Source: Catajapyx aquilonaris
Taxonomy: Eukaryota
Assembly (NCBI GenBank): GCA_000934665.2
Contig: JYFJ02003265.1
Coordinates: 1 to 44,175, forward strand
Direction of reading: 5' to 3'
Length of the DNA stretch: 44,175 bases
Position numbers and translations under genes: made by a program. Positions 2,273-43,075 of the stretch are shown here, piece after piece. Position 1 is the stretch's first letter. Every line of letters begins with the position of its first letter. The notes under the pieces are model-generated. The model did not search any database, was not told where the DNA came from, and saw nothing but the letters and a program-made list of their open reading frames with translations.

Positions 2273-2471
2273 TAAAGCAGTAACGACCAGAAGTAGCTGC
2301 ACTTGGCTGTTTTAAAACGTCAAACAGATTTTTTTCGCTCAGTGGTGGTTTTCGACGTTTGAGCCTAACATATACACCCAAACATTTTGTTCATTAACAC
2401 TTGCTTGGGGTGGGCCAAATTTTTTTTTTTTTTCATTGTAGGTCTTGCAATCACCTAATGATCATACTAAC

Positions 2472-2690: not shown

Positions 2691-2699
2691 GGTCCTTAC

Positions 2700-11800: not shown

Positions 11801-14800
11801 ACATCTTGAAGGAGATACAGTTACATTCCTCCTATATACTTGCACATCCTTCAAAATGCTTGACACTTGTAACAAATAACAGTTGTGGTACAACCAAACA
11901 CCCCCCCCTCCCCCGCCTTTTTTTTTTTTGCCTCTCTCGTTAGGTAGTTCTTGAAATACTAACTGGTTTGGGCAGCTTTTTTCTACAATAACATGGCTTA
12001 CATTTGACATTCTCCTTCATGTACTTTCCGCCTGTCTAGTGTCACTCGTGAGCCCAGCAGTGGATGTGTATTCCTTTGGCATGTGCGCTCTTGAGATGGC
12101 AGCTCTGGAAATTCAAGGCAACGGGGACTCAGGGAACCAGGTGACTGAGGAGAATGTGCAGAGAACCATTGATTCCCTGGAGGACCCCCAGCTCAAGGAC
12201 TTCATTCGCAAGTGCCTGAATCTGAACCCCTCCAAGAGGCCCACTGCAAGGGAGCTGCTTTTCCATCCAGTGCTCTTTGAAGTGCACTCGTTGAAGCTCT
12301 TGTCTGCACATGCACTTGTTAATTGCGCAGGTGGTTATCCTATAGTTATTTTCTTGACACTTATTGCTAGATGTAGGGAATGTGGGATTGTAGTGCAAGG
12401 TGGAAGCATTTAGGAATATGACTCATTGTAATTGAAGGGCACAGGAAGATGAACCTGAGAAAATTACATTTAATCTACCCTGACAATACTGGGCTGACTG
12501 CAGTATGCTTTTATGGCCAGGCACAAGCAGGGGAATTGAAAAGGAACTTGTTTCCCAACCAGAGGCACCGACCACCTGGCATCTTATTTCTCAAGCTAGA
12601 AACATACGGGATGCCTCAATGCTCAGTCAGGACCCAGGCAGCATGTTACTCCCAAACTGGTCCCCAATTGCCCTGATTGTGCCCGGCCTAAGTGAACCTC
12701 AGTCAGAATGGCCACAGTAGCAACAGCATTTTGAAACTTATTTATAGGGCTTTGTAAGAAATAAGTGTAGGGTGTTTTTACCATGAATGATGCAGGCAGT
12801 GTTTGTGAACCACCACAAGAACGTTGTGACACAGGTCCATTTTGATGCCTTCGTAACAGCACAAGTCAGAACCTCAAACAAAAAATTTCTCAAATGTTTT
12901 CAAAGTTAATTCTTGTGGCTAGGATGTTTTTTCCTCTCCTAATTGATGTGATACCCTAATAACGTATTATATTGTAAAAAAAATAATCAACGTTTATTGA
13001 TCCTTACAAATGCAATTAAATAATGCTGTCAGTACAATGCTAAGATTGCGCCTGCTCAGCTGGGAAGCTCCCCTTTGTCTTGGTGCATTCTGAATGCCTG
13101 CAGGCTGGTAATTACTTGTTAGTGCTACTTCACATGCTCATGACCCAGCTGTCTCTCAAGTTGATGCAGTATGAGGTGGCCATTGTGTTGCTCACATACA
13201 CGATGGTCCAAGGGAGGATGGACGATCGCTTACAAAAAAAATCCGTAACCATAAAGCAATGATTGGTTACTCAGAGCAGTACAAAGTAACTGCATACCAT
13301 CCCCTCCTAGAGAGAAAAAAAAACAGTTGCTGACTGCTATTTCTGCCATCATACAAATAGGGTTAGGTGATGGGGGTTGGCGGAGGGATCGCACTGTCAA
13401 GAGGGGAAGTCTGCTTGAGGACAAGAGCCTAAACAAATATCTGATTTTCCATCCTACTTGAAAGCCAGTCATAATCTCTACAGTGTACAGGGACCCCTTT
13501 TTTTTTGCAATTAGTTCCAGCTACGATTCATGTAATATTATGCACTGTCACGGGAACAGACAAAATGAGTTTGAGGTTTTTACATACTGGAATTTGACTA
13601 TGAGAAAAGGATAATAATAATAATAATTCATACCCCGTTATCAGCCATCGGCTCTTTAGGGGGGAAAGTTTGTTTTGCCTGCTTTATTTTTGCTTTCATT
13701 TTACTGTGCTCTTTGGGATAGGATAGGGACGGGAGGAGGCGGCTGTGGCCTATTAATTACGGAAGCAACTCCGGAATTTTTCTGGAAGGACCGTGGGAAA
13801 CCACAGAAAACCACGGTCAGAGTTGCCGGCCCCGGGATTCGAACCCAGGACCTCCCGATTAGCAGTCGGACGCTTTATCCACTATGCCAACCTGCTTCGG
13901 TATGAGAAAAGGATAAATAATGCTGTATTTTTCTCCACTCAGCCAATATATCCGAGACCATTACTGATGAGGTCCTTCATCGTCACTATGGACCAGAGGT
14001 TGTGGTAGCTGACATCCGCCACCCACAGCACCCAGATATCCCTGCAGTGGAATACCGCATGTCAAATGTTCCAGTCACAGAGAAGCTAGAAAAGTTTGTG
14101 GAAGATGTCAAGTTTGGAATATATCCCCTGACTGCATATGCCTTGTTGCCCCGACACCGACCTTCAACTGGGCCAGGATCTAGAAAGCCCAGGGCAACCT
14201 CTCCTGAGACGTCAGGAGGTGAGGCAGTTGAATCATCGACAGGTCCCCAGGTCAGTGAGGAGGAGGATGATGTGGAGGCCAGAAGGATTGTGAATATGAT
14301 GTGCAATGTAAAGCCAAAGGATGGAGCAGGGAATGGTGGGGGAAATGGGGGAGGAAATGGGTTGGGGGCACTTCTTATGACAATATTACTGAGGATGGAT
14401 GACAAGATGAATCGCCAGTTGTCATGCGAAGTCCATGAGAACGACACTAGCATTGGCTTGGCAGATGAGCTTGTCAAGTTTGGATTCATCAATGAGGTAA
14501 GGATCTTCAAAGAGCTGTACGGTACGATGAATTGATGTCATGAGCAAATAGTTTTGGGAACATCTTTCAACTGGACGTGTAACTATTAAATTCCAGTACT
14601 GCACTGGTGCCATTTTCATACTTTCACACAAGTAGTTGTGTCATGATGTTTTATGACACATGCTGCCAGTTGTGGTCCATCTTTTTAACACACTAAACAA
14701 TAAAATTGATTTTTTTTGCATGGTGCACGTAGGATCGAACTCTCAGAATAATTGTTGACGATAGTACTGCATTATATTATTGTGACAATTTTAAGTAATT

Positions 14801-15287: not shown

Positions 15288-18200
15288 TTAAGTTTCATTG
15301 GATATCATGTTGGCTACATGCTTGTGGACATTAATCATGTTTTCTCTGATCATGCTGACGTTACGATCACTGCCTCGCACTCGCTCCAGCAAGAGTCTGC
15401 TCCGATGAGCAAACAATCTCCTGGCAGCCTCAATGTGATCAGTTATCAAGACCTCCACTTTTGTTCTGGCGGAAATAACTTCTTTCCAATCTCCAAGGTT
15501 ACGCTGCGTTACATAGAAGGGCAGCTCATTCAGTGGATACTTTTGCTTCCGGTTGTAGTAGTCCTCGTACAGCAAACCATACTTCTGGGCCAGTTGGTGG
15601 TTCACCACTAGCAGCTCCTCCACCATGGTCTGCAGCTTACCAGTGACTATACGACGCTTGGTTGAATATGAATCAAATTTGTTGGTTGTAGTTATCAATT
15701 CTGAGAAGCCAACCTTGAACAGGTTTGAGGCGTACTCCAGCAAACCTTCGAGGCTGGAGCACTCCACGGTTGCTGCTTCTACATGCGCCCTGTGAGGTAG
15801 AATACATTAGTCTTGCAACAATTGTCTAAATGAATCGATGAATAACATGCTGGCCCACTAAATCGCAAGCACCATTTTGTTCGTGTTACAAAAACACAAT
15901 AATAATGAGTGATAGTAGAGACCATAAATAGCATGAATTCTAAGGTGAATTTTTGCTAAGGCCATATTAATTTGATTTGCTACAGCCAATTTTTTTAAAA
16001 ATCTCCGTGCTGGGCCATCTTTGGCCCTTTTGGGGGACCTTTTTACGAAATGCCCTGGTCAAAGGGCAGGGTGACTGGGAGGGGATGTGCAAACAGCAAA
16101 CTGCAATGTCATATCATTGCTTGGTCGTTTTGTGAAGTCCCCCGGGTGGATTAGCCTGTCGGAGATTCCACCCGAGACAAAGCCAGAGACTGCCCAACTC
16201 TGCATGAGATGAAGGGAGGAACCCCAGATGAGATTTGATCCTGGGACCTTAACATCCGTGGGCGCATACATTACCACAGCGCCACTTCGTCTCCCCATGC
16301 TACGGCCAATTTAATTACATGGTGTTCAAAAGTTTTCACATAGTGTAAATGATCAGGCCACAAAGCCCTATGGCAGAGCTATTCAACTGGCGGACCCCAG
16401 TCCAAATCCAGACCGCGACGCAATTTGGTCCGGACGCGACAACATACAGGACAGTTTGAAATAGCATGATAAATTGAATAGCTGATTTTCTAAAGGGCGT
16501 AAGTCCATTTTCGTCGGTTTTGATGCGGATTTGTATAGATAAATAGCTCCCCTATGAACTGACATTATAGAGGGCTGATTGTAGTGAAGTGAAGACCACA
16601 CTGCCAACAGAAATCAACTTTCACAAGGCGTACACAGAGGAGGTCCCCATCAACGACAAAAAAATTGCGGACATTAAGAAAGTCCTCAAAGTACATCCCG
16701 GAAGAGCACCGCCCCTTCTACGACAAGATCGTGTCGTGGAAGACCACTGTAGCGGACTCTGATGACTGAAAACCAGATACTTTTCAGTACATTAAAGGAT
16801 GTTGTCAAGTTACAACAGGTTTTAACATTACAGTAATGCGTTGATTTTCTACTTTCAACTTTGAAGAGGTCATACATGTAGAACTATGCATACCTAACAT
16901 GTGCTACTGTACGTATTTAGTAGTAATTAACTGTTAGTAACTTCAGCTAAATTGCTTCCCAACGCAAATCTTTAGCTTTGATGGAATTTTGTTTTTTTAA
17001 ATGCAAAACATGTACACAGTGACTTACGCCCTTTAGAAAATCAGCTATTCAATTACTAATTCATGATTTTTGGAAAAAGTGCTACCAATTTCATCAAATA
17101 CACACCCATTCAAATCTCCCACATCTCACCTAAGCTCGTGTGACCTTGAACCCCCCAAAAAGTTTAGCCTGCGGTGGGCTCGTTCCCCACCCTTTACAGC
17201 TTGTTCCCCTTGTGCTTACGAAATGCCCCCCCCCCCCCCCTCCTCCGAAATTTTTTNCTTCTGCCTATGTGCCTGTACATGTCTTCATATGCCCTGTCTT
17301 GATTGGCCCTTCTATCCTTGCTGCACATGTTTATATTTTCGGATATGAACCCTGTGGTACGAACTAAATCTATATATTTTTACCCGGGGGGGTCCGGACC
17401 TTCAATGGCCCAGGAAAGGTAAATACTGGACCTTGTCAGAAACTAGTAGAATACCCCTGCCCTATGGCCTTAACTATCCAGCTAATTTAGCACAGGAAGT
17501 ACCCGTTTTACACCATTAACTGGTTCTGGAAAAACACGACGTAAAGTGTAATTGCACGAAACGAGACAAAATTATAATATAAGTAAATGAGATAGGTTCC
17601 AAAATTTCCAAACATTTTCCACAGGCAGTACTACAGTAATATTGCTAATATTGCTGTTTTTAATGCTGAATATTTGAAACTTTGATTAATGGGAGGTTCC
17701 AGGTTGAGGGCCATCGGGTTTTGATGGTTCATTTTCTTATTTTGACAAGAATTGGAGTACCCATAGCGTATTGTAACCAACAGTTAGAGTGCTTCGGAGA
17801 ATGCCGAGACCAACAATATGGTACTGTATGTATCGACAAGGTATCGATAGAACCTGCCACAAGGCACCATGAAAAACAAAAGAAGAGCATTTACGGCCGT
17901 GTGTTTGGTCTCAGAAGTGTTGCAGTGATGTGTTTATGTTTAGATTGTGTTGTTGTCTTCAAATTTTTCAAACAATTCAGATTTAAAAATTCCAAATGTA
18001 ATTTTAAAACCAGCATGTTAACGTGAAACGGCGTAAAACTGGTACTTCCTTTATAAGGTAACTACCATTGCAGAATATTTAAAATGTTAAGTAAACTGAA
18101 TTATCCCATGGTTTGCCACCTTTTTTAAGTGACAAAAAATAAGCAATTAATAATTCAATTAACTGAAGCTGCCAGTTTGTGTTAGTACACGAATTATCAT

Positions 18201-21200
18201 ATGTACTGCATCAATAACTCATTAATCTCAACATCCCTGAAATACTGAACATCTCATATCTCTTTGAACACTCTCTCTCTCTCTCTCTCTCTCTCTTCAC
18301 CCGCCCCATTCTCTTTCTTCTTTCTTTCACCCTCTAACTCTCACATTCCCCCAATAGAAATGTGCAGCTCTTAGATCCTAACCCTCTTGTAATTTGAGTA
18401 TAAAATATGACAGGGTCAAGCCCTGATGTTTTTTAACAGGTCAAAATATCTAAAACGACAGTTCATACTAAAGCCCTGAATAAAATCCCAATTGAATCAC
18501 TTTTTATAAGAAGGGAACAAGTCCAATTGAAAGTTGTTGGACTTGTTCCCTTCTTATAAAAAGTGATTCAATTGTCTTACTGCAATTCTTCCTTTGTATT
18601 TGTTGCCTCAGTTGTCTTTGCCTCTATGTCTTGTAAGGCATTTTCATATGATCCAATATCGAGAAGGCACAGTTCCAGTTCATCATTAATTTGTTGGATC
18701 TTTCCTTCCATACTCTGGTCTTTAGCCTGGCAGTAAAAGAGAGGTGAGATATTTAAGACGCCAACCCTTAGTGCACTCTCAAGGATGTAGCACAACTGGC
18801 ACCCCATGCAAGTTGCACACCATTTTCACCTGCTCCAGACTCCATGTGAAATGACAAGTTGCACTGTTTGGAGAGTGACTGCCCTCTAAGTAATCAGCAG
18901 TGCTATTTTGCCCTGCAATTTTGCATAGAAATGTGCAATAGGAGCAAAAAGGCATACTTGCACAGGCGCCTGTGTTATGGCCCTGAATCTAGTAAGGTAA
19001 CTTCCAATGTAGCATCTATTTTATAGGTTACATTAATGGAATGGTAAGATTTGGGTTACATCACAGGTGTACATAAAGATTACACTGACAAAATTCCATA
19101 ATGGAATTGGAGCTACAGCATGACTGCAACCTGCTACCATGCACCATGAAAATATAATTATGATGCAGAAACTCACTGTAAACAGTATTCCACACTCTTT
19201 ACTCAGTTATATAGGTTACCTGACTAAAATGTTTAATAGTACAGTTCTGACATCTATCTATCACCATAGAGTGTGTTCCAAGTATTTAGATTATTTAGTT
19301 ATCGCAAATTTTGCCCCAAGTTGTTGTTTTCATGTAGATTTTTGCACCCCATTCAAGATACCCAATCATGTGGCAGGTGCTGTATTTGACTGCACCTGGG
19401 AATAATGTGCACCTAATAGGGGAGCAAAAAGCGACACAAAAACAATTTCATACAAATAACTAAAAGGACCGGTATACTTGGAACACACTGTATTTCTTGT
19501 TAGTTTATATGTTTTAAGGTTACATTTTTTTCAACAATAACACCATCAGCCTCACTGCTTCTGCAAGGCAGTGATCGTGAGTAAAAATGAGTCACAGAAT
19601 GAGTCACAGTTTCACCCCTTGAGTAAGTAAACAGCATTACTTGCTAGTCACAGACTACTACCAGGCCTGCAGGAAAATGTAGTTGACATTTTTCATATTT
19701 CATTTCATTTCTCATTTAGGATAAGTTGGCTGTGCTCTAACAGTTTGAGAAACGTTGGCCTAAGAGATGACATGTAGGCTAAACTTGCTTTGTGATTTTA
19801 GTGGGTGGATTAGCCTAATACCAACATTGTCACTCAGAATTTTTTGCATTTTCTTTCTATGAACCTATCAATTAACTGAGTCAAGCAACCAGGAGCATCA
19901 CCTTGGCTGCCTTTGTAGCTGCCCTGAGTTCTGCCCTTCTCACTTCAGCCTGGTTCTCTGCAGCTGCCTCCCCTATCACAAGGCCTGAGCTGAAAGCCCG
20001 AGCTTCTAGTGTCCTGCTCCTTATTTCAAACAGGTCTTTCTGTAGCTGTTCCATTCGTCCATCTTTTATTGCTATGTTTCCTTCTTCCTGTTCCATTGCG
20101 AGTTTGGCCAGCTCAACTTCCTTTTGCTGCCGCTCCACAAACCGCTCCAGGGCTTCCTTCAGCTCAATCATCTGCTCCTGAGCACTCTCAATCATCTCCT
20201 CCTCCTCTGACAGGCGAGATTCAAGGTGGCTGAATGTGGCATCAACCTGCAACTTGTCCTCACGGATGTTCGTCACAGCCTGAGTCAAGTCATTCTCCAT
20301 GTCATTGTACATACTCTGAATTTCTTCCATATCTTTCTCCACTAAGGCCAGCCTCTCTGTAATCTTTTGCAGTTTTGCCATCAGTAATCCTATTGTCTTG
20401 GACATTTTCATGGTTATCCTGCAAAGTAAGAATGAATCACTCATCTCAATCTCTACATGAGAACCTTATTTTCAGTAAATTGAGTCTTTGTTCTTAAGTT
20501 GCCATTTTGCACTAGACATTAGTCACATTACACATGTTTGTGTCATAATTGCATAGTGCCTTTATTCTGACTGATTAAATTATAGTTACTAGCATAAGTC
20601 TTATTTTGCCAGATATTGTCCATCCTGATTACTGAAACAAATTGTGATACCTCTATCCTGCTTGAATTCTCTAACACTGAAAGAAATATTTGTGTCTTCC
20701 ATTAAATTGGCTCATACAGTGTGGTGAGAAAGTGAAGACTACATCTTGAGCATTTATATTCCTACAAAACATAAGTTTTTCTGCATGTCTCAATTTTCAG
20801 GAACAGTGTGCAATTTGAGGGGCATTTTTACTACACCCTTGCTAGCAAGGGGGGTAGTGACATGGAGGCAGTAAAACCGGAGAATCACTGATGTACAGTA
20901 CAGTATTTAGCAAAGATAAGACTTGGTCAGAAACTCCAATGAATTTAATGTGAATCTGGCTGTTCTGCTTCTACACAAATATACAGTCATGGACATCATA
21001 ATCTTGGCGCTTACATTGCTGTACAATAATAGCTTACTTTTTTCTCTGAGACCAGTACAGTACAATACATACAAGTTACAAACTAAACTTGTATTCGTGT
21101 GCTGCACAATTTAACAAGGTTTCTCTACATATCACACTCACGTCTTTATATTTTTCCTCATGGACTGCTGTTCGTCAACATAGTCTTCAGTTTCGTGCTC

Positions 21201-24200
21201 TATGTCATGAATACTTTTTTTGGAGACGCCTATCTTTCTCTTCAGCATCACATTCACTGACACCTTGCAGACCTTTTGAGCTGCAAGCTCTTTTTCATAC
21301 TTCTCCGCACTGCTCTGAACAAACTTGATCCGATTGTCCTGGTCAACGAGTTTTTTCTTCCAATTACCAAGCTCTTCCATCACAGCGTTCTTCTTTTCAA
21401 GCAATGCTTCCATTACACTGTTCTCTTCCTCAATTTCACGAGACACTGTTACCACAATCTTTTCACAGTCACTGATCTTCTGTGGATACTCATCAAGTCG
21501 CCTTTGAAGCTAAAGAGAATATTCATCTGCTTTACTGTGTGGCGTATGCTCAATAATGGTTCACTGATGCACATTTAAATATGGTAACTACTACTGCATT
21601 CCAAAAGTATAAGTAGCTACTGTTTGGCTGTACAGTACAAGTTTTTAAAATCATTTCCATTAATGATCAATACAGCCACATGATGGCACATGTTTTTAGC
21701 TACCCCTGCATAGAAATACAATGCCAGTGTAATCATTTTTGAATTTTGGGGCCACATTCCACAATCTTATGTAATGTACTTTCACAGCCAATCTTTACCT
21801 ATTGGCTACTCCTTACGTTTCTCAGTCTACCAAAATTTTCTGGGGGCTGAGATACAAGTGAAGGTGACCATGGCCTGACAGCTAAAAGATGCCTCACTTG
21901 AACTGTTTGAGACTTTAATTACATCATGTGAGATATTTAGTTTATAAAAATGTATTAATAATTGGCTTCAGCATCATTTTTACTAATAGTGACATACGTA
22001 TTTTTGCCGACCCTACAGAGTTTCGAGTCTGTTTCACTTAGTGTTAGTTCCCCATATCATATGCTAAATTAGAGATAATGAATGTGATTACTAGGGCCAC
22101 TTGCCCTGGGTCAGGGTTTTCATGGCTTTCTTGGGTTTATTCCTGCATGAGAAACTTTTCAAAAGTATGTCAAGTTATTTCATTTCTCCAATTCATGCTC
22201 ATCTGCATAGAGTTCAAATTATGTGAATAAGAAATAATGACAAAATGTGGCTTTTAAAAACTCACCTCTATCATACAACAAAAGTTAACTTGTAACTTCT
22301 CAAAATTAACATTGACAAGCAAACAAAATCCCATGAACAGTTTGCAAAACATGGCCAGATTATATGACAGTAGGTCTATGCAAAAGTTTTGCAGTTTGTT
22401 GGAAAAACAGAAAATCTGGAAAACATATATTATTTTGTCAAAATATTGATCATCACTTTCAATAACCCTTAGCCAACGTTGGGTCAGAAGATGAATGCCC
22501 CGGTGGTAAAAGTTTCTGAGCTTTGCCTCAAAGAAGTCAACCACCCATTGCTCAATGGTGGTGAGGCTGGCAAAATTCTTGCCAAACAAGCCATATTGCA
22601 TAGAATGGAACAGGTGGAAATCCCAAGGGGAAATGTCTGGCGAGTATGTTGGGTGCCATAGCACCTCCCATCCCAGCTCCAACAACATCTTTTGTATCAC
22701 CCTCCCTCTGGTTTTTAAAAAATATGAGAAAACAGTGTCGAAATTGGTCTTGTTGGGGTGTCACATCTCAAAATGAGGGCAAAACAGGGACTAACAGAGC
22801 AAAACTTTAAAAACAATCCCAATGGAAGCCTTGACTTTGTTGACTCACATGGCTACCACAAAACAAATTCGGTTGTCAAATTGTTTAAGTTATTGACCAC
22901 CAAAGTCAACAGCACAAACGTTTGCATAGACCTAATAAATTACAAGTTACCTTTCATACGTTAATAAGTTGTCTCGACCTTCCCTCCACTTGTAGACAAA
23001 TGAAGAAATTTTTTTATCATGAGTTCACTACTTTGCACTGAATACATTCTAATATACTATGAGTTTCTTCATGTTCGTTTCTGCCTACCTTATGAACTCG
23101 GTCAGCTTCTTGTTTATATTTCATTTCTAAACGTCCAATTTCATCTCGTACAGTTACTTTGAGGTCAGCCAGCTTATCCTTGTGGACTTTAATCATGATA
23201 TCAAGGTGGCCCACATCCTCTTTGTGTTGCATAATTAATTTGTTCATCAGGGTTACCTGAGACCGCGAAGCGCCCAGCCTTGCCTCAGCTTCCTTTATGT
23301 TGTCTTGTAAAGGATCACTGTGGTTATTGGTGAACAGCAATAGAAAGTGGATTAAAATAAGGAACATTTAGTTAAGAAGGTAGCAGGTTAGTTGTGCTAA
23401 TTCAAATTCAAGCTAATTCAAGCTTGCATACATGCAGCAGAAATGTATGAAATTTAATGGCATTCATTGATATACTGTATACTGATCCTTTCTCTTCTCA
23501 GTTGTTTCATGAAAGATTTTCTGTTGAAGTCTGGCTTGACTTTAAAACCTTTTATTACTGATATATGGGAATTTTAATAGATCATACTGATTGACCCTTT
23601 CGTTTTACTCTTCTTGGGAATATGTAATAATTGGCATCAAAATATTTATTTTGCATTTTCTGCACAACTCAGCTATAAGTATATGTAGGATATACTTTCA
23701 CACTCACACACATCCATGAAATAGCAAGAAATGGCAATTTAATGATTACATGTTCACTCTATGCCATTAATTTTTTAAACCAAGCCACATCATGACAACT
23801 TTCAGGCTGCTGGCCCATTATGCACTGCCACAGGGAAGGAATGCAATATGTCACCAATACTTCCACTTCAGGCAATCCAATGTTCGATTCTGAGAGTGGA
23901 GGGACACAGTGAGATCAGCAGTTGCAGATGCTAGGGTGGGCAGCTTGGAGCAGACTGCAGGGCAGGAATCAGCAATTAGGAAGTTAATATCACCGCATGC
24001 TTCTAGCCTCAGTCATGGCAGGTAAATGTGGGACGTGCTGCAGAATTTTCCCACTCACATAATCTCCCTCCCAGGTGACATGTCATAATGGCACAGCATT
24101 ATAGAGCATGCCTGTGCGAAGAATCAAATGTCCTGCTGGACCAATGAATTGATTCACCAACTCACATGCAGTGCAGAATATTTAGGGTGGCAGTGAAACC

Positions 24201-25236
24201 AAATGGCACCTCATCATTGCAAAATGAATTTGACTCTGATGCCCATGGAAGGATAAAGGATATTTCTTGTCATATGCTACTTTACACTCCTAAATGCACA
24301 GATATTACTACCATGTTTCCTTTGTTGTGATATGAGAGATGTGTAATGATTATGTCATCAGTCACCTCAATCATAAAATGTAGGGAATCTCATTATTCCC
24401 TTTTGCCATATAATCTCTCATTGCAAATGTATGATGTCAATGATAACAGATCACCTGAATCAGAACAATGAATTTACAGCAGGACATATTCTTCCCCAAT
24501 CCCGTCACCACAATCAAACGTTCAGCTTTTGCTTTGCTCTGTATGAATACTTCATCACCTGAGCATCTTTTCTTAAACACACCCCATCACCTGTCACTCA
24601 AGACTGCTGACCTGTTGCTTTTTGTATGTTCTCCCTTCCTAACACTAGCAGTACATTTGCCTTACTGGAGTTCCAACAGCCGATCTGATTCTTTCTGAAT
24701 GGAGATGAGCAATTTGTTTTTCTCCTTCATCTGCAACTGCAGGATCTTCAGCTGTTCATGGCACTTCTTCACCAAGGTCTCTACTTCCTTCATCTTCATA
24801 TCTTCCAGAGTCTTCTTTGGAGCATGTCCTAATATTTCTATATACTCCATATCTGTCATCCTCTTCTCCACATCATCTGCTGTACTCAACATTAATGTCT
24901 TCTTGTGCAACTCATTCACAACATCGTCCTGCCTAGACGCTATATCTTTCTCAAAATCATGCATCTCACGAATAGCGGCTGCCAATGCACCCAAAATTTT
25001 CTGGCTCCTTTCTAATATAAATATACATTTGAATTAAGACTTTATTTGCATTTTTTGAACGTCATTCAAAGTCAAATACCTTGCTTGCTAAACACAATGT
25101 CTTTTACATGTCTTCCAAGTGGTATTGTGGGCACTGTCACTTCAATTTGGTTGAGAACCATGTAAATAGCATGGAATTCTTGATCGATATTTTCAATCAT
25201 TAAGCAATCGTCAAACCTGCCCATTGTCTGGTCCAT
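15288..25236 (-). CDS. Long coiled-coil protein, 754 aa (possibly CCDC175/CCDC178-like); exons 25236-25080, 25011-24666, 23317-23089, 21509-21142, 20418-19902, 18726-18581, 15789-15288
   Basis: Six E/K/Q/L-rich heptad ORFs of the ORF track plus the 25236-25080 exon join through GT-AG introns with compatible phases (1,2,0,2,0,2) into 2265 nt ending TAA at 15288. The family suggestion is weak (size and C-terminal pattern only). Confidence 0.85.
15993..16297 (-). mobile_element. Degenerate tRNA-derived SINE
   Basis: Minus-strand head with A-box-like TGGCGCTGTGGT and a degenerate B box GGATCAAATCT, with an A-rich tail. 15-bp TSD TGCTAC(A/G)GCCAATTT at 15978-15992 and 16298-16312. Confidence 0.7.
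16476..17050 (+). mobile_element. Internally deleted Sola1-like DNA transposon
   Basis: Perfect 30-bp TIR GAATAGCTGATTTTCTAAAGGGCGTAAGTC with AATT TSD. A frameshifted transposase-like C-terminus at about 16611-16769 reads KAYTEEVPINDKKIADIKKVLK/YIPEEHRPFYDKIVSWKT. Confidence 0.8.
17493..18050. mobile_element. Degenerate non-autonomous TIR element
   Basis: AGGAAGTACCCGTTTTACACC ... GGCGTAAAACTGGTACTTCCT inverted ends. Confidence 0.5.
18271..18296. repeat. (CT)n microsatellite
   Basis: Uninterrupted CT dinucleotide run. Confidence 0.9.
18489..18574. repeat. Perfect 38-bp inverted repeat with 10-nt loop (minimal Sola-like MITE?)
   Basis: CAATTGAATCACTTTTTATAAGAAGGGAACAAGTCCAA (18489-18526) and its exact reverse complement (18537-18574). 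The AATT|GAAT... ends resemble the Sola element at 16476. Confidence 0.9.
19269..19490. mobile_element. Tc1/mariner-type MITE
   Basis: TA|GAGTGTGTTCCAAGTAT ... ATACTTGGAACACACTG|TA. Confidence 0.65.
22373..22932 (-). mobile_element. Internally deleted mariner transposon with transposase C-terminal remnant
   Basis: Peptide LGWEVLWHPTYSPDISPWDFHLFHSMQ...FYHRGIHLLTQRWLRVIESDDQYFD is the mariner YSPDLAP region. TIRs TA|GGTCTATGCAAA ... TTTGCATAGACC|TA. Confidence 0.9.
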
Positions 25237-25239
25237 TTT

Positions 25240-25923
25240 TTACTGGTCCTTCAGCAGGGAAAGGCTTCGCTCTTTTGCAAGCTTCAGCAATTCCTGAGAA
25301 AGCAGGATGAGAAAGAACATGAGTTGTCACTGTTGTTGATTTACAAAAATAGTGATGTAACCTGGAAGCATCAATTCGACCTTTTCATTGTTTTTGTGCA
25401 GTGTTGCAGATTAGGCAGATTTTGAGAAATATGAAACAGCTGGGGCTCGGATTATTTGCTTCCTTTGGTGTAAATAGTGCAAGGTAATTAACGGGGTTAA
25501 CAGTTGCGTAGTACGAATAGCAAGGATGACAGTAGGGATAGCATGAGATATGTGGAATGTCAGTGCAGCTGGCATATAGTTGTGTACTATACTCATAAAG
25601 TGAAAGGGAAATTTGAAAAAGTCAGCATGAAATACACAACTTCAATTAATACGTACCGCTCTGGTCTTCTCAATGTTCTGCGGGTTAAAGGTAACCCTGG
25701 ATGTCACTGCCTTTCTTGCAGTTTCTCGGATGAGTTTGCGCACATACAGCATGTAGGCAAACCGTATCTGAAATGTTTCAAGAAGTACCCATTATGCCTA
25801 TCTTAGACATTCCTCCCGCTCTTTAGCACTTACCAGGTCAATGCTTGCAGTAGCTGCCTTGGCCTTGGTGCCATGGCTCTTGAGATAGTCCTTGACCTGC
25901 GCCGAACCCACACCTTTCGTCAT
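25240..25923 (-). CDS. Small basic histone-fold protein, CENP-W-like, 84 aa; exons 25923-25834, 25767-25657, 25293-25240
   Basis: Spliced product: MTKGVGSAQVKDYLKSHGTKAKAATASIDL/IRFAYMLYVRKLIRETARKAVTSRVTFNPQNIEKTRA/ELLKLAKERSLSLLKDQ*. Junctions are GTAAGT...TTTCAG and GTACGT...TCTCAG, both phase 0; start context GCCAAGATGA. Helix pattern and size match CENP-W as recalled (human DLLVHLNCLLFVHRLAEES vs IDLIRFAYMLYVRKLIRET). Confidence 0.7.
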
Positions 25924-26099
25924 CTTGGCAGGTCCCGACCAAATAACTGGCTCCAACACTCTCCTGGAAATAAATTACTATATATTCTCACCATGCCACC
26001 GTCTGGATACCAGTGGTTCTCCAACTTTTCCATTATCCAATTATCATTATCAGCTCTTGTCATTATCCCGTATGGTCGTATAGGCTACCACCATACTGC

Positions 26100-26637
26100 A
26101 GAAACGTGTGTAATAAAGAACCAAGTTTCTAACCAGCTTGCGGCCCATTCAGCCCACCTTTAAGGACCCCTGCGACAGGCGAAAAGCGGAAAAGAACGAA
26201 CCTTTTCCACCGAAGGAGTGTTGTTCACGTCCCAACAGTGCTTGGCGGGAAAAGTCAAGATGGCTGCTTAGTGCTTAGTGTCCATTGGTCACCTTGCTTT
26301 TCACAGTTTCAAATAATTATGTAATACATCCAGCCGTGCATCAAGTACACCAGATCGGTTTACTCAAACTCGGCAATTGATCCAGCCGGTCCACGCATAT
26401 TTTTGCATTAAAATCTGATGTTGACCAGTTTTGCCACTTTGCTAAACAATAGAGCGTGTTCCGCCATCTTTGTGCTCCTTGCGACGGGATTGGCTGGGTG
26501 TTCCAAGATGGCGTCCAGAAGTGTGAACAAAGTGAGCATCGCAGTCCGCCGCCAGCTGTCCCTTTCCGCTGACGAGCTATTCTCCCCTGACGTCGTCGTC
26601 GTCGGTCGAGGGGCGTCGGAGGCAGCCAGACGGAACG
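26100..26637. promoter_or_regulatory. Bidirectional promoter between the CENP-W-like/coiled-coil unit (-) and RCN2-like gene (+)
   Basis: Divergent start codons about 715 bp apart (25923, 26638). E2F-type TTGGCGGGAAA at 26242-26252; YY1/Pho-type AAGATGGC or GCCATCTT at 26257, 26463 and 26505; CCAAT (minus) at 26284-26288. Confidence 0.6.
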
Positions 26638-29600
26638 ATGGGTCCCTTGCAGCTGGTGGCGATGGTGGCCTTGGCCTTGCCTTGCCTGACCGCCTCCGTC
26701 CCAGCCACGGCCGCCGGCAGCCCTCCACCGCAGCACTCGCACGCAGCGGGGGCGGCCCCAGGGAAGGAGAGGGAGCTGGACGGGGCCTACAGCCCGAGGG
26801 ACCACTCGCACTACCATGGCGACGAGCACCACACGGAATTCGACCACGAAGCAATACTTGGTACGCTCGTTATAATGTAGCACTTGCAGGAGAGGTCGTT
26901 GTCATCGCAAGCAAATCAACTCACGCAAAGATAACAGATCCATCCTTGGAAAAGTACCGATGGACAAGCTTTAAATTGTTACAGAAGTAATTATGAACTA
27001 TGACTGACCACTGCACAGAAAGTCGTCATTGATCTGGCAAAAGGACAAAATTCAGCATTTTTACAATTTTACAGGAGAGCCGAAAGAAACCTGCAAACCT
27101 CTACACGAACACGCAGGATGGCGTTTTGATTTTCCGTTCTAACTCTGACGCCACTTGTCCCATATGTTCACCGTATTGCCAGAATGTGACCCAACACTGG
27201 ATGGTGCTGGCAGAGGCCATAGTCCGATTTTAGCAAAAATGTCGAATTCGTTTCTTTGTCAGATTAAAGATCAAGCCCATATCTTTGGTCCACATGTTAG
27301 AAAAAACAGTAGTTCTCCCATCAGAAGTGTAAGCAAAAGTTGCAGTGCATCACTCTACTCCCAATTATCTATGTTGTGGATTATCCGTGCGTTGCCAAAA
27401 AATAAAGTGAGAAAAAGTCCGAAAGAATGTCACTATGTCTCGCAAACAAGGAAATATAACAGAATATTTTTCTATAGGCAGCAGACCCCTGAGAATGCAT
27501 GTCTGGCACCTCCCACTGTTCAAATTTCCACACATGCTCCAAGAAGGGAGTGAGAGTACTAAGTGAAGCAGACATTATTTTATTAAAATCATTCCACTGG
27601 CAAAGGAAATGTTATTCAGGGGCTTGCATGTTTCAAATGTAAATTGATATTGAGATATGGTGTACTTCTGTATGTAATTGTTTTATAAAGTAGCAACATT
27701 CTTTCTAAAACATCACTTATGCCACCTGGCAACCTCGGGTCCTTTGTAGAAATGTGAAAAGTGGGAGGTGCCAGACGTACATTCTCGGGCTTCCGACAAA
27801 CTGAAAATCTATGATTAGTTTTATTGTTTTCATTAAACCTTATTTAAAGCAGCATACACATTTAAAACTTTTGAATAGTTTATTTTTATAGTATCTAGGA
27901 CCATATTCAGATGATCCGTGTTTTCTAATATTGTGGAGACACCCATGCATTCACTGGCATGGATGATCGGGATTACAGTGGAATATTGTACCAATGCTAT
28001 CTTACTCGTATAATTTAGTTAAACAATACTTCTCTATTGCCATGCTCAAACAGTGCACGTGTGAATTATTGTTTTAAAAAGAGACACAAGTGTATGCTTG
28101 GTGTGTTCTGCAGGGAGTACAAAGGAGGCAGAAGAATTTGATCATCTGCCACCTGAGGAAGCCAAGAAGCGCCTCAGGATACTTCTTGGTAAAATGGACC
28201 TCAATCATGATCAGCAGATTGATCGTAATGAACTGCATGCATGGATATTACGCTCCTTCCAGTAAGCATAGTCACGATAACATGTAACAATTTTAGAGAA
28301 CGAAACTCTGTAATTTTTAAAACATTTTTGCCTCACCAGCATGTTATCGCAAGAAGAAAGTAAGGAAAAATTAGAGGAAGCTGATACTAATGAAGATGGA
28401 AAGGTCACGTGGGAAGAATATGTGGCGGAAACATTTGGCGATGACTCTGATGAGGACAATGAGATTGGTGACTCTGAAGAAGAGAAGAAAGTGCGTACTA
28501 TTGGTCATAAAGAGGTCAAAATCACTTTCTTGTTCCCAAAATTTCAGCTGATGGAGAATGATAAGGCCCTCTTCACTGCTGCTGATGCGAATAAAGATGG
28601 CACCTTAGACAAGGATGAGTTTCGGTCATTTTCTCATCCAGAGGAGAGTCCAGACATGCTCCCTGTTATCCTCAAGCAAACACTGGAAGACAAGGATGCC
28701 AATGGCGATGGATTTATTGACTTCAAGGAATATGTCGGGGAGAGAGGTTCGTGTAATTTGAGTTGAAATTAATTCCAGGACTACAAAAGAAATGGGTGCA
28801 TTTTTGCTTCAAGAAGAAATTAATTTTTCTTCAGTCTGTAGTGGGCAGAAATTTTCTCTTCTTTATGAAGGGTGGGAGAGAGGATTGGAATGTGCCCTTC
28901 ACAATAGTGAGAAGACACATATTTTTTGAAGGGTCAACCAAAAGCTACTTGAAGGTGGAATTACCGATAGCACTGTTAACATTTTCCTTTTCATGGTATG
29001 TTGTCTATGCAACAGATTATATTAGTCCTGGAATGATTTTGGAATGGTATCACAGCTTCATACTGTTGCTAAATGCATAAAACATAGTCTATGCAAGAAT
29101 GAATGCTTTTAAGAATAGGAGAAAAAGGTATCCGAAAATAAATCATACTGGTTGGTTTCCTGCTTCCAGACATGACAGACTGAAAATTTAATATTACACA
29201 TAGGCTTTACTAGCATGTGGGCAGTGGTGAACTGCCCTTCCACAAACTGAATATGTACAAATGATCTGGTTCTCAAGAGTAACAGTGAATATGGCCAGGC
29301 ACTTGCCCTGATGCACATCTCTGAATGTAAGGCCACAGTATGGAGGTTGCAAACGACTACCTGGCTTCTGACCAGTAAAACTGGAGAAGAGGCCGGTGTA
29401 CCACCACTGAGGAACACAATAAGTTAGTGTTTACAAATTTCCACTGTTGTGAAGTGTTACCCAACATTGGATGCAAAGCAGCTTTTTAGCAGATTATAGC
29501 TGGGGAGATGTTTCTTATGACAGGAAACTGAAGCTGCCTAGGAAAGATAGAAGAAGCAGCATATATCTTGCTCTGTCGCCTACCCCACGAAGATCATCCT

Positions 29601-35978: not shown

Positions 35979-38900
35979 TCAGCGTATAAGGCAAGTGACG
36001 CACAGCTTGGAGGGGCCAATGCAGTCATCATGGCAAAAAGCCCCGCACTTCCTGCACATGATCATTGCGTTCAGGTTGCAGGCACAGTTGCTCTGGCTCT
36101 CACTTGTTGGGGCAGCTATTACTGCTGGTCCAACAGGAGGGGGCATCCCTGTGGTGGTGACAGGTTCCATCTTCACCTCCACCACACCGTTTACCCCATT
36201 GTCCATCACTGCCACCACTGTCCTTCTCTTGTCCATGCTATTGTTGTTTAACAACACTTGGGAGGGTGAATGTGATGGAGAAGGGGCAGGGGACGTGATG
36301 CACGGGGAGAGGGACGTGGGGATTAGATGCACTCCGCTAATTTCCACACTAGCAGGCCTGGGGCCAGGCATGAAGTCTGTCCGGGAAGGTGGGCGAGCTG
36401 GAGGGGCACTCGATGCCCTTCGCTGCTGCTGGTGTTGCTGTTGTAATTGCTGTTGTTGTTGCTGCTGAAGCTGCAATTGCTGCTGGTGTTGCTGCTGCAA
36501 CTGCTGTTGTTGTTGCTGCTGAAGTTGCTGCTGTTGCAATTGCTGCTGTTGCTGTTGAAGTTGCTGCTGCTGCTGCTGTAAGTGTTGCTGCTGTTGTTGT
36601 AGTTGCTGCTGTTGCTGCTGTTGCTGTTGCAATTGCTGTTGTTGCTGAAGTTGTTGATGTTGCTGCTGCTGGCCTGACATGGTCACTGTTGCCAAGGCAT
36701 CTGCAGCCACTTGGTGTGGCATTAGGAGTGGCGATGTAACTTTTGCAGGTCCAATCACTCCTCCAGCAGTTCCACCTGCTACACTTGTCTGCACCAGAAT
36801 GTATTGGCTCACATGGTTTGGAGACGGAACCATGGTACCATCCGGAACCTTTGCAAGAGACAAGGGCAGGCATTAAGTGATTACACATTGATCAGAGCTA
36901 ATCACAAGACATGAAGAGCACAGTGGTCATGTTTTCTAATTTATTTACTCTACCACTGGTGTGCTTCCATAACCTCAGTGGTCCTTAAATTTCCATACCA
37001 AGTGACAGGAACAATAAACTTGTTGCCATTCACCATTCCCCCCTGACAATCAAGTGTGGTAGATGACATATTAGTTCAAAGAAGGGAATGTCCATGAGAT
37101 TGTCGCCCTGACTTTCTTTAACCCTTTGTCCCCCACGCGATGTTGCACTGTTCCCGAGGGGGTTTAAAAAGAGCGCCCTCAGTGAAAATCACTGGATCTG
37201 GCACCATTGGTTTCGCTCTCGACTCATGCACAAGAGGGGGCTGGACATTGCGAGACATACCAATCTACGCTGCATATCGAGAGACAAAAGGTGGCTCAGG
37301 TGTCAAGCAGGCACCGCCAAGAGCTCGGAGCACTCCGCCCGGCCAATAAGGCGCGAGGATGCATTTTATGACCAAAATGGCTCTGGGGGAGATTGTCTAC
37401 CCTTCACAGACCGTTTGGATTTTCCCCCCGCTCAGTGTGACATTTCAGCAATCCAGCGGGATTTAAATGGAAAAGTGACCCCTCTCTAATATACGAAAAC
37501 ACGACTTATTTAGAAAGAGTCATGTCTCGTTGTTAATAAAATGTGGGTTAAGTTCATTTTAAGAGTCCCACATCACCTAAAAAATGGACCTATCCATACC
37601 CCCACCGGACCACATTACGAGATACTTCCACGCAAGTGATTATCATTCATTTACTTTGCCGGACGAGTGTGCTGCATGCGCACATTGCATCTTGGTTAGA
37701 ATTTTGTTTTCTGCAACTTCAGACCTGGCAAGGTAAGTTTACTGGCATTTACTCTCTAAAAGCAGCATTGTATAATTATATCAAATTTTCAAAACATTGC
37801 CTCAGGAATCTCTCGTAAGTGTTGCGCCACGCTGCATTATTTGACACTTACTATATTTTACCGCATTTTACCCACATCATACCACATGTACACAAAAGTA
37901 GGACGTATGGGCTATTCAAAAATGTAATAAAATTTTGCGGAAGTTTGCGCAACTGCATAAAAGTTACTCGTTTTCAGAATGTGCCCCCGCATTCACATAT
38001 GTTTTTTTTTTGACATAATATTTGTGTGTAGCATTAATGACAGTCAGAAGCAAGAGTCATAATCATATTGTACCTCATCAGTTTTGTAATTATGTGAAAT
38101 TATCTCTATCTCTATAAATAAGGAAGTTTGTCTGTTTATTTGTCAATTTGGATGTTTGTCCCTTATAGAAATCCGGGGGAAGGCCCCTACACCGCCTTAA
38201 ATTAGCATATCGGGAGTTACATTTTTCAAGGAATTTAATGCCGCATGTTTCAGCTTCCGAAAATGAACCTAACACCCATAACACGCATATTCCCAATTAA
38301 CCAATTATCAATTACCTATTTAACAATATTCATAGATTTCCATGGTAATGCCCTCATTACATTGTAGGCCTACCACCATAACAATGACCATAACATACCC
38401 GGGCAACGCCGGGTAACCTGCTAGTGGTTAATAAAATTGCACGATTATGTAGGCTCATTATTTTATATGTGATTACTATAAATGCCTATAAAGGCATTAC
38501 AAACCGTTTCTATTGTGCAGTATTATTCATAAAAACCCATTTAAAAATATTCCCGCACATAGTTTTTCACACCGGAATAAAATCCCGCTGGATTGCCAAA
38601 ATGTCACACTGTGCCCCGGCGAAAAGTACGTCGCAGAATTTCAGGACTTTTAAAATGGTTTTCAGCTGCACGTCCACGTACCGTGAAATATGCGGCAGGG
38701 AGCTACGTGTATTTAAATTCGCGCAGTAAGTGTTTGTTTCTGGTTGTTTTAAATGAATGAAACCTTTGGACTATGACGTCGTGCTATTAAAAATATCACG
38801 CGAGTGGCGTAAATATTCATGAACATATCTGAAGGCTATAGTGAAAGCTATTTCAGTGTTGGACATAAATTGAGGCATACTGCTAGCGACATTTTCTGAA

Positions 38901-41900
38901 GCGGCAGAGGAAGGAATCTTGCTCACCCGGCTTGCAGATCTTTATCTTCGATTCCTTCTTCTGCCGATTTGGAAAATGTCACTAGCCATCAGTGCCTCGA
39001 ATGCCTCGATTAATGTCCAACACTGTACCAGTGAACTTTAAAAAATTACTAGGAAAACCCTCGCTCTGCTCGCATTTTCCTAGGGCACAGGCCTAGAAAA
39101 CCACTCACTTTGCTCGCTCTTTTCTAGGCCTGCGGTCTGAGGTACCTATTCGGCGCACCATATCGCTGGGCCCGCAGGGGGAGGGTATAATGTTAGCCCT
39201 CCAGCAGTCTTCGAACAGCCCAATTAGTGAGAAGTGAGAACATGTCTGTCCTGTGTCTGTCATTCCATAAAGGGAACTGACATAAGTGAACAACTTCACA
39301 GTAGTGCCAACTGGGCAACAATACAGAGAACTAATGGACAGTTTCCCCGGCAACCCAACAGAGGAGTTGTTTACACCCCATGGCGCATGATTAGAACACG
39401 GGCCAGTGGGGAGGTGGCGGTAACAATATGCGGCGGACCAATCAGAGGGCTCGGTCAAACACCGCAATAATTTTAATATGATAGATTTTGTTTGGTTGTA
39501 TAATTATACAACCAAATCGGGCCGCGGGAGACAAAGGGTTAAAGTGTAATATTGCAGGTTAGGAACATCCTACAGACTGTCCTATACTTACTCAATAACA
39601 CAAGCACAAAAGTAGCATTTAAAAAATTACAACGTCTCAAAAAAATCAGGTCAAAAATCCAACAGTGCAACACTTATTTACGAGATTCAAAATACTTTTC
39701 AGATGTTAATCAAGCTACGTCCAGTCATGAAATCGTTGATTAATTAATAATGCCACCTAAAAAGGCCTAATTTATGGCAATGTTCACAACTGTTGCTTTT
39801 GAGCTTTTGGAAGCACACCATGAAGTGCAATTGAGTCATCTTTTTCCCATGCACCTAACATATGCAATGTTTCATTTAAATGCAGGGGGTTTCCTGTAAC
39901 TCTGTAAAGACTTGCAGGGGTAATAGAGGGGACCAAGACAAGTATTTTTGACACAAGAACCTGTGTCTGGGAACGCCATCTAGAGGGGGTTCATAGACAA
40001 GGAACGGGTGCGCTCCAACGCTTCACACAGGAGTTGCTACCATGGTTGCTAGGCAAGCTGACTGTTCTGTTGATAGATGGCAAGCAGTTGTTGCCAGGTT
40101 ATGGTGTATCGCGTCGTTGTAAGCAAATAACAACGGGGTACGCCATAACCTGGCAACAACAGAACCGCTGTTTACTCTCCAAGCGTCTCCCAGGAGGCGG
40201 ACTTTAGTTGCTGGACGGGTCTGCTGTTGCCAGGTTATGGCACATAGTGTTTACTATCCGAGCGTCATCTATCAACAAAACAGTCTGCTCGCCTAGCCCC
40301 TCTTGCGTGACGCGTTCCTGGTCTATGAACCCCCTCTAGATGGCGTTTCCGGACATGGGTTCCTATGTCAAAAATACTTGTCTTGGTCCCCTCTATTACC
40401 CCTGCAAGTCTTTACCGAGTTACAGGAAACACCCTGTATAATGAAATAGAATTCAAGTTACTGAAATATGAACTAAAATGTTCCTATTTTGGAATTCAAT
40501 GTATAAATAGCTTTACTTTATAAGCATTTTGTAACACTTGAAATATAAATGAAGCAAGGAAGAGTCACTTACTTGATAAAAAAGCAAGGTGCATTGGGTA
40601 AAAAAATATGTATCACTATGTGTATCACTATACTAAGGACCTTAACAATATAAATTAGTTCTACCACTACATATTTAATTATGTGATGTCACACAACAAT
40701 TTTAAAAATACCAAAACATTACCATTACATTCAGATACCACAAAACTGGGTTAATTCTTGTAAGCAAGTTATTGACATTCGAGGGTGCACGATCCTGCAA
40801 AAACCTCATAAATTTCAGAGCAATCCTGTACAACCTATTAGGAAATATGTGTCAGTATCTTGCACTAATCTACAACAAATAAATATATTTTTTTCCGGTT
40901 CTCTCATGAAAATTTAACATGAAGTTACAAAGCAAGTAATTTCATCTGATATCAGATGAAGTAAAATATTTTTGTCAGTATATATCAAGACATGAACACT
41001 CAGGATGCAGAGGGGGTCGTGCCACTAGCAATAGTGCATAGATGCATATGAGGTAGCAAACCAAGGTAGAGCACATGGACCAAGACAGGTAATACGCTTT
41101 AAAAGCAATGTGTAAACTCTCAACTATGTCAAGCCATTGCACAAAATTCCGTAGAGCCTACCTACCCTGATAGGTCAAAGGTCATGATTTTGCCTACTTT
41201 TTCTGCCCAAAACTTCAGAATTGTCCAATTGTAGTTGCACAAATGAAGATGCTAGTTAGTGAACCTCATATTACAGCTGCAAAAGGTTCTTCCGCCTCTT
41301 GCCAATTATATGGGCATAAAACCAGGGGGCTCTTATGGTAACAGTTCCGGTTGGCAGGATGTCCGAGTTTATGGATTTGCGAAAGCAGGCAGAGGTTTAA
41401 AGCAACATGCTTCCTTCACAAAATCTGCCTGATTTCACACTACTTGGAGCACACAAATAACATTCATTAAGAAAACAATGATTGCCAATTAAATACTAAG
41501 AAGCAGTAAGTCGCTACAACTTTCCCCTACCTAGCCAAATACATAACAAATTATTCAAACAATAAATAAATAACTAAAACAATCACCATTATAAGCAATA
41601 AATTTTCTAGAACCTGGTAAGTGCAGTCTGGAGATAGAACAAGTAATCAAGCCATTCCCAAGCAAGTTAAATGCTAAAATGCAGTATTTCCAAACAAGGC
41701 AAAACAGGGAAGGTGCACAAACTAATTACACTATTACACGAGGTGTTTCCTTCATGCTCACCTGCAGCAGCAAGGCATTCCCAATCCCAGGGGAAGGCCT
41801 GACAAGGTTCACCATGGCTGGGTTCAAATTGCGATGTTGTGGCAGGGGCTGGGCCAGAGTTAAGGACTGGGGAATGGCCATGGGCTGTTGAAGAACTTGT

Positions 41901-42714
41901 GGCAATACCTGGGTTAGGGGCTGGGGCATGGACTGCTGAAGTACTTGCGGTAGGACGTGGGTTATGGGCTGTGTCAGGACGGAGAGAGGCTGCGTTATTG
42001 ACATGGGCTGGGGCAGGGCCTGCGGTAGTGCCTGTGGCAAGGCCTGAGAAAGGGCTTGGGATATTTGCTGTGGAATTTGTTGGGTCATATGTTGGGTCAT
42101 TTGTTGTGTCATTTGTTGTGTCATTTGTTGTGTCATTTGTTGTGTCATTTGTTGTGTCATTTGTTGGGTCATTTGTTGTGTCATTTGTTGTGTCATTTGT
42201 TGTGTCATTTGTTGTGTCATTGCTTGGGTCATTTGCTGGGGCAAGGGTGGACCCATGGGTGGGGGCATGGACTGGGACAAAGACTGGGGCACAGCCTGGG
42301 GTAGACACTGAGGCAGAGATTGTGGCACAGCCTGGGACAGGCACTGGGGCAGGGATTGGGGCACATTCTGGGGTATACACTGCGGCAATGATGGGGGCAA
42401 AGGCTGGGGTGGCAGGGGTGGACCCAGAGGCTGGACTAAGGGTGGGGCCCGATGGGGTACTCCAAATGTTGCTGGGTTCCTCCTTGGTTGTGCTTGCTGC
42501 ACTTGAAATCGCATGCCCCTCTGATGGTAGTGCTGCTGCGGTTGATTTGGAAACAGATGAGGGTTTGGATGCTGTGGATGCTGTTGCATTTGCAATTGTG
42601 GATGCACATGTCGGTTGCTTTGTGGCTGCTGGGTGTGGAACCTGGCTCCACTTACAACTTTGCGTGGATCATATTGCTGCAGGTCTGGCCTGCAAGCTGC
42701 TGTTACAGGTGTCG

Positions 42715-42788
<74 letters not shown>

Positions 42789-43075
42789 GCCTGCTGAAGT
42801 TGCTGTGCCTGCTGCAGTTGCTGTGGCTGTGGGGGTCTTGGTGCTGCCTTCCTAGGTGGAGGTGGTGGTGCAGTGGCTGAAGTGGTAGTACCTGCTATAA
42901 GAGCTGGTGGGGGCTTCAGCTGGAACTTGAGTTGCTCCCGATTAGGGCTGCTCTGAATTACTGCTTGGCAGATCTGGTAGGAGCGCTCCAAGTTCACTGC
43001 TCCAGGTGGAGGTTTTGACGTAGTTTGGCGGGCACCCCCACTAGCAACGCCAGCTCCACCACTTCCAGATCGACT
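35979..43075 (-). CDS. Asx: Additional sex combs (Asx/ASXL), 3' part; exons 43075-41762 and 36848-35979, probable small exon about 43201-43140; 5' part outside the window
   Basis: C-terminal atypical PHD finger [35 protein letters not shown] and the arthropod Asx motif [36 protein letters not shown] donor at 41762 and TTGCAAAG| acceptor at 36848, both phase 0. Confidence 0.95.
36423..36671 (-). repeat. Interrupted CAG/CAA polyglutamine tract in the last Asx exon
   Basis: About 80 codons, mostly Q, interrupted by L and H. Confidence 0.9.
38103..38424 (+). mobile_element. Non-autonomous Helitron
   Basis: A|TCTCTATC 5' end, 3' hairpin ACCCGGGCAACGCCGGGT followed by CTAG|T; inserted in an AT dinucleotide with no TSD. 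Confidence 0.75.
38854..39025. mobile_element. Tc1/mariner-type MITE, same family as 10489-10655
   Basis: CAGTGTTGGACATAAAT...GATTAATGTCCAACACTG|TA with colinear internal sequence. Confidence 0.85.
39049..39485 (-). mobile_element. Non-autonomous Helitron (minus orientation)
   Basis: Minus strand begins A|TCTATCATATTAAAA and ends with the hairpin CTAGGAAAATGCGAGCAGAGCGAGGGTTTTCCTAG|T, preceded by a similar duplicated hairpin. Confidence 0.7.
39883..40436. mobile_element. Fully palindromic Tc1/mariner-type MITE
   Basis: CAGGGGGTTTCCTGTAACTCTGTAAAGACTTGCAGGGGTAATAGAGGGGACCAAGACAAGTATTTT ... AAAATACTTGTCTTGGTCCCCTCTATTACCCCTGCAAGTCTTTACCGAGTTACAGGAAACACCCTG|TA. Confidence 0.85.
42077..42232 (-). 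repeat. Coding 12-bp minisatellite, 13 units, encoding (MTQQ)n in Asx
   Basis: Plus-strand unit TTGTTGTGTCAT; translates as MTQA(MTQQ)10MTQHMTQQ. Confidence 0.95.
42716..42787 (-). repeat. Near-pure CAG polyglutamine tract in Asx
   Basis: (CTG)n run on the plus strand with three TTG codons, in frame with the Asx exon. Confidence 0.9.

Follow-up and report, generated by a model that had tools for sequence, protein, structure and literature searches.

The locus described here lies on the minus strand of the window, by which we mean the whole 44,175-nucleotide stretch of DNA that was analysed. Three short exons join into a small open reading frame (ORF) of 84 codons, and its stop codon stands 3 nt before the start codon of a larger gene for a coiled-coil protein. 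The two ORFs lie in one frame and meet within one exon at the junction TAA-AAA-ATG, which an earlier note on this DNA did not mention. The parts of the locus are given below in the direction of transcription. Slashes mark exon-intron boundaries, codon log-odds are in bits, and the splice scores, also in bits, come from a position weight matrix of general consensus frequencies and are usable as a ranking only.

25834..25923, minus strand: coding exon 1, 30 codons from ATG to CTG; donor CTG/GTAAGT, 10.6 bits; in-frame codon log-odds +10.9
25768..25833, minus strand: intron 1, a GT-AG intron of 66 nt in phase 0; polypyrimidine tract poor, acceptor TTTCAG weak, 1.65 bits
25657..25767, minus strand: coding exon 2, 37 codons; donor GCG/GTACGT, 7.1 bits; log-odds +4.6
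25294..25656, minus strand: intron 2, 363 nt, phase 0, GT-AG; strong acceptor TCCTGCTTTCTCAG/G, 11.9 bits; in-frame log-odds -36.7
25240..25293, minus strand: coding part of exon 3, 17 codons plus the stop TAA (25242-25240), with CTTTCTCAG preceding; log-odds +11.7
25080..25239, minus strand: rest of the shared exon, with AAA, then ATG at 25236-25234 (AAAATGG); donor CAAG/GTATTT after 25080, phase 1
25041..25046, minus strand: AATAAA in the intron just 3' of the 25080 donor, which may act as the poly(A) signal of a short mRNA with the small ORF only
15291..25011, minus strand: further exons of the coiled-coil gene, at 25011-24665, ~23304-23062, 21509-21141, 20465-19884, ~18729-18580 and 15806-15291

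The coiled-coil gene as a whole occupies 15291-25236 (minus strand), has at least seven exons with long ORFs of positive coding log-odds, and encodes about 780 residues. The exon that it shares with the small ORF extends from the acceptor at 25293 to the donor at 25080 and contains both the stop of the one and the ATG of the other. Beyond the stop, the remainder of this exon (25080..25239) scored +4.4 in frame versus -32 and -34, and past the 25080 donor the coiled-coil frame goes on into 25011-24665. The exons of the coiled-coil gene matched no Pfam family above the cut-off. No PDB relative was found for the exon ORF 24665-25033, and the 172-aa last exon showed no homologues and a single chance match in the PDB. 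An ORF at 22254-22760 (minus strand), inside an intron of the gene, is by its look presumably the remnant of a mariner-type transposase. The assembly has a single N in the window, at 17257.

Several other genes were recognized in the window. Divergent from the small ORF is an EF-hand gene at 26638-28766 (plus strand, start codon at 26638), of the reticulocalbin type, with a signal-peptide-like start and multiple EF-hand matches in Pfam; its first exon is CpG-rich, with an observed/expected (o/e) CpG ratio of 0.94. A kinase-fold gene at 7718-14535 (plus strand) matched the Pfam families Pkinase and PK_Tyr_Ser-Thr and has unusually long uninterrupted exons (ORFs of 169, 152 and 204 aa); we take it to be NRBP-like, that is, a pseudokinase. 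WNK kinases were the best PDB match of the kinase exon, and its Atlas clusters contained generic kinases only. Inside this gene, on the opposite strand, lies a tRNA gene (13824-13895; Rfam, 42.6 bits). At 35979-36872 and 41726-43075 (minus strand) lie the C-terminal PHD_3 domain of an Asx/ASXL-type protein (Pfam E = 5.9e-22), with long poly-glutamine runs ahead of it, and a further poly-Q ORF with a repeated MTQQ unit, which probably forms an exon farther 5' in that gene. Two ORFs near the window's start, 7-390 and 2451-2735 (both minus strand), carry a pattern that we assume to be that of THAP-like zinc fingers.

The small ORF had been described in the earlier note as a hidden three-exon micro-gene for an 84-aa basic protein, with both introns in phase 0. 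The model proved exact on the minus strand, and splice signals, a frame-specific coding signal and its rank versus rival models back it. The joined exons give 84 codons, the introns fall in phase 0 after residue 30 and residue 67, and the peptide computed from the joined coordinates has a pI of 10.4, with 18 K+R versus 7 D+E. The intron lengths are each a multiple of three. Read in the frame of the ORF, intron 1 has a log-odds of -9.5 and two in-frame stops. The small ORF starts at the first ATG of the modelled mRNA, in the context GCCAAGATGA. The note had also held that an ORF list overlooks these exons, being shorter than 40 codons each. The stop-to-stop ORFs around them measure 58, 49 and 28 aa, so that a list with a 60-aa floor skips all three.

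The strength of the model was compared with chance. On both strands of the window, 84 three-exon ORF models of at least 80 aa passed the same minimum splice thresholds, and the splice sites alone are therefore insufficient to exceed chance. The acceptor at 25293 was the strongest signal of the locus and stood above the 99th percentile of AG sites, which indicates that the exon with the coiled-coil start has upstream exons.

Codon log-odds were trained on 1191 codons from long ORFs of the same window, either Pfam-supported or coiled-coil, against ~70,000 non-coding triplets. The spliced small ORF scored +27.2 bits in frame versus -34.9 and -28.4 in the other frames; all three exons were positive and both introns negative in the same frame. 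Real exons of the window scored 22.9 ± 15.5 bits per 84 codons (48 windows, leave-one-exon-out). A score of +27.2 or higher was found in none of 1280 stop-free non-coding windows of 84 codons and in none of 5000 random draws. When training was restricted to the kinase and EF-hand genes, the score of the small ORF fell from 27.2 to +19.7. Part of the codon score reflects an amino-acid composition rich in K, A, L and E, which is common to the coiled-coil training exons.

With looser thresholds, 5736 three-exon models were obtained, 1298 of which avoid all known coding stretches; the mean log-odds of these 1298 was -14.1 ± 10.2. Among them the small ORF ranked fourth by coding score and first by summed splice score (31.3), and it was the sole model to reach both values. 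The frame-specific log-odds, together with this rank versus competing models, suggest that the three exons are probably coding. The three models with higher coding scores are variants of one locus, 5304-6503 (plus strand), with log-odds of 29-31 bits. They may belong to the 5' end of the NRBP-like pseudokinase gene as exons so far overlooked; the kinase exon of that gene begins at 7718.

Putative promoter elements of the small ORF were read from the sequence upstream of exon 1:

25945..25950, minus strand: initiator-like CCAGTT with its A at 25948; transcription from here would give a 5' UTR of ~25 nt, free of upstream ATGs
25978..25984, minus strand: TATATAG, a possible TATA box by its consensus, ~30-36 nt 5' of CCAGTT
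26245..26252, minus strand: TTTCCCGC, matching the E2F-type consensus, in the CpG-rich stretch shared with the EF-hand gene

The region 5' of the small ORF is CpG-rich (CpG o/e 0.74-0.94) and is shared with the divergent EF-hand gene; the ratio is 0.47 for the window overall and 0.2-0.35 in gene bodies. Together with the 66-nt intron 1 and the uninterrupted 169-aa kinase exon, this mosaic loss of CpG would be more in keeping with an invertebrate, perhaps an arthropod, than with a vertebrate. CCAAT is present at 26284-26288. The E2F-type motif was rejected as evidence: it has two matches in the window versus 2.96 expected by chance, which is not significant.

Relatives of the small protein were sought with its longest internal piece, exon 2. 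HMMER with the 37-aa exon 2 peptide gave 0 matches at E <= 0.001 among 1.84 billion representatives, a scan in which a query of this length needs ~70% identity for detection. A word-indexed search at near and longer lengths with the 49-aa ORF that encloses exon 2 from stop to stop gave no match. That these searches of two very large protein collections turned up no protein with exon 2 is consistent with an unannotated gene. The sole metagenome match to the exon 2 peptide, at 989-1063 of locus L001, was dismissed as due to chance, as its 26 residues lie inside an unrelated 163-aa ORF; the contig is prokaryotic or phage-like, with long uninterrupted ORFs.

The position of the stop raises the question of how the second ORF would be translated. 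Four ATGs lie ahead of that of the coiled-coil ORF in the modelled mRNA, and leaky scanning therefore cannot account for its translation. Two arrangements can be proposed. According to the first, one dicistronic mRNA would carry both ORFs, and ribosomes would end at the TAA and initiate again at the ATG 3 nt downstream; reinitiation after an ORF of 84 codons is usually inefficient in eukaryotes. According to the second, a short mRNA would end at the AATAAA (25046-25041), and a long mRNA would use the 25080 donor to join the coiled-coil exons. The dicistronic mRNA and the short mRNA ending at AATAAA appear equally possible.

We consider the small ORF to be a real coding unit, the first cistron of a locus with two ORFs, which would encode a basic, probably all-helical microprotein of 84 residues; our rough probability for this reading is 0.6. 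The sequence shows the ORF, its splice sites, a coding signal specific to one frame and the stop-start arrangement, and from these we infer that the exons are spliced in this way in vivo and that both ORFs share a transcript. Against it stand the weak acceptor 1 (1.65 bits on a scale suited to ranking), the 84 models that pass the same splice minima, and the failure to find a relative in the protein collections and the metagenome scan. The same exons could instead form the 5' untranslated part of the coiled-coil gene, with a frame that arose by chance or serves as a purely regulatory uORF without a functional product. A stop 3 nt before the main start in one exon is a typical position for a regulatory uORF, the frame has no known homologue, and many three-exon ORFs arise by chance. 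However, the +27 bits in frame lie at the level of real exons, no non-coding stop-free window reaches them, and the signal goes off exactly in both introns, so we regard a non-functional frame as improbable. It has also to be considered that the coiled-coil protein begins with these 84 residues as its N-terminal domain and that the TAA reflects a nonsense allele, an error of sequencing or translational read-through, given that the two ORFs are in one frame with only TAA-AAA between them. A shared frame, however, is expected by chance in 1/3 of cases, of all stop contexts TAA with a following A leaks least, and the ATG right after it lies in AAAATGG, a strong start context. A single interrupted protein thus seems very improbable.

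The earlier note had further proposed, from an alignment by eye, that the product resembles the kinetochore protein CENP-W, and that its introns would fall at positions equivalent to those of human CENPW. Its size and charge are CENP-W-like (84 aa and pI 10.4; CENP-W is basic, with a range of about 75-100 aa), but the computational tests gave the identity with CENP-W, or with the histone fold in general, no support. In Pfam, exons 1 and 2 taken separately matched neither CENP-W (PF15510) nor any histone-fold family at E <= 10, with the qualification that these queries measure no more than 30 and 37 aa and that matches above E ~0.1 are mostly filtered. The sole Pfam signal on any piece was that of exon 1 residues 9-23 to Ish1 (PF10281, HeH-type), with E = 0.063 and 14.1 bits versus a cut-off of 26.6. 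A phmmer search of exon 2 against all PDB sequences (E <= 10) returned no CENP-W or histone chain, and that of exon 1 returned a single chance match, to a HisF chain; the queries of 37 and 30 aa have low power. The ESM Atlas yielded no usable match to exon 2. AlphaFold2 predicted for exon 2 alone two helices, 2-27 and 29-36, with a break at N28-P29 and a mean pLDDT of 68, values that are uncertain for so short a piece.

The joined peptide was compared with a profile of 96 distinct archaeal histones, extracted from genes fetched by a short degenerate motif. It scored 0.8 bits against the hidden Markov model, a profile without a CENP-W positive control, and 1505 of 5000 shuffled sequences matched or beat this score. 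In hhalign, likewise run without a positive control, the peptide had P = 0.39 and exon 2 alone P = 0.33; the aligned part was just the stretch beginning SRVTFNPQNI, which was placed on the loop 2 / helix 3 motif. Ungapped threading on the archaeal-histone profile gave the end-to-end register as the best of 55 (-3.2 bits, the next being -14.3); it was the single result that leaned slightly towards the fold, but the value was reached by 7% of 5000 shuffles (p ~0.07). In this register G18 coincides with the glycine conserved after helix 1, and R54 and T56 with the two invariant residues of loop 2, R and T. A 70-histone profile searched against the PDB found eukaryotic H4 at ~40 bits, and the best 60 of its 686 matches were all archaeal histones, H4 or similar. 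With H4 at ~40 bits versus 0.8 bits for the peptide, the latter is far from canonical histones.

The literature on arthropod kinetochores bears on the same question. In the part of PMC12678787 on which we draw, no insect homologue of CENP-W is recorded as identified to date, and CENP-T of all insect orders examined there is predicted to be a monomeric histone fold with an extension of its own in the CENP-W position. The same part gives experimental evidence of monomeric CENP-T in Lepidoptera, and the portion of PMC13281801 used here gives the same picture of CENP-T and CENP-W for Bombyx. CENP-W is reported in Limulus, Penaeus and a millipede, with the accession numbers of arthropod CENP-W proteins in supplement file 4 (PMC12678787, same part). 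As described there, the searches were made with DELTA-BLAST and HMMER on annotated proteins. A gene of three micro-exons could escape such searches.

Two views of the protein's fold were weighed. One is that it is a histone-fold CENP-W orthologue, which would pair with CENP-T at the inner kinetochore. The 84-aa length without long tails, the high pI, the placing of G18 and R54/T56 in the best threading register, the hhalign pairing with the loop 2 / helix 3 motif, and the gap left by searches of annotated proteomes (PMC12678787, in the part cited) all agree with it. Set against these are the Pfam and PDB searches, in which histone families and chains were lacking, scores on the archaeal-histone profile that shuffled sequences often equal, the threading value and the ESM Atlas result. 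The prior is also low if the host is an insect, given the statements on insect CENP-W and monomeric CENP-T in the cited parts of PMC12678787 and PMC13281801. Size, charge and helix layout of the small ORF are compatible with CENP-W, which among histone folds fits best by size and charge, but this is a minority reading: we judge the orthology unlikely, and less likely still if the host is an insect. The more specific proposal that an insect or close relative has a CENP-W missed by annotation-based searches owing to exons of 30, 37 and 17 codons, encoded as an upstream cistron with a fast-evolving coiled-coil protein, is a long shot. The other view is that a real protein is encoded that has no histone fold, either a DNA-binding module of the SAP/HeH (helix-extended-helix) kind with a long helix after it or a helical microprotein restricted to its lineage. 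The sole Pfam signal, to Ish1 on exon 1, is in line with the former, the protein is basic and helical, and the lack of detectable relatives is as for a young or fast-evolving small protein. The Ish1 match is, however, sub-threshold and covers 15 residues, and there is no other pointer to a specific alternative fold. We hold this view tentatively, as a reasonable possibility that falls short of an even chance.

If the small ORF is translated, the locus would provide an example of a coding gene that is invisible to ORF-length filters. The stop-start junction with the coiled-coil gene would make a clean animal test case of translation restart versus alternative polyadenylation. Should the host be an insect and the fold pair with CENP-T, the loss of CENP-W in insects, as reported in the cited part of PMC12678787, would be reopened. 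If the reading as a CENP-W cistron were true, a centromere histone-fold protein would be translationally tied to a second protein.

Compared with known systems, the small ORF shares with CENP-W (PF15510) a length of ~80-90 residues, a strongly basic character, three predicted helices and an R-x-T-hydrophobic loop before the last helix, and the helices assigned by eye in the earlier note are compatible with its sequence. It differs from CENP-W in having no sequence or profile match, as judged from single exons in Pfam and the PDB and from the archaeal-histone profile, and the family is given as absent in insects in the part of PMC12678787 used here. On the archaeal and eukaryotic core histone fold (PF00808 / PF00125), the best of the 55 gap-free registers would put residues of the peptide in line with the conserved glycine and the R and T positions of loop 2, whereas the threading score of -3.2 bits (equalled by 7% of shuffles) and the HMM score of 0.8 bits, as for shuffles, set the two apart. 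The HeH/SAP-type motif of Ish1 (PF10281) resembles exon 1 at residues 9-23, which match its first helix and turn; the second helix is uncovered, and the 14.1 bits lie below the 26.6-bit cut-off. As a locus, the arrangement can be set beside dicistronic arthropod small-ORF loci and uORF-encoded proteins, in which, as here, two ORFs lie on the same strand with no promoter room between them. The stop and start 3 nt apart in one exon fit this comparison as well. For the present locus, known from its sequence, a separate short mRNA ending at the AATAAA (25046-25041) is equally possible.
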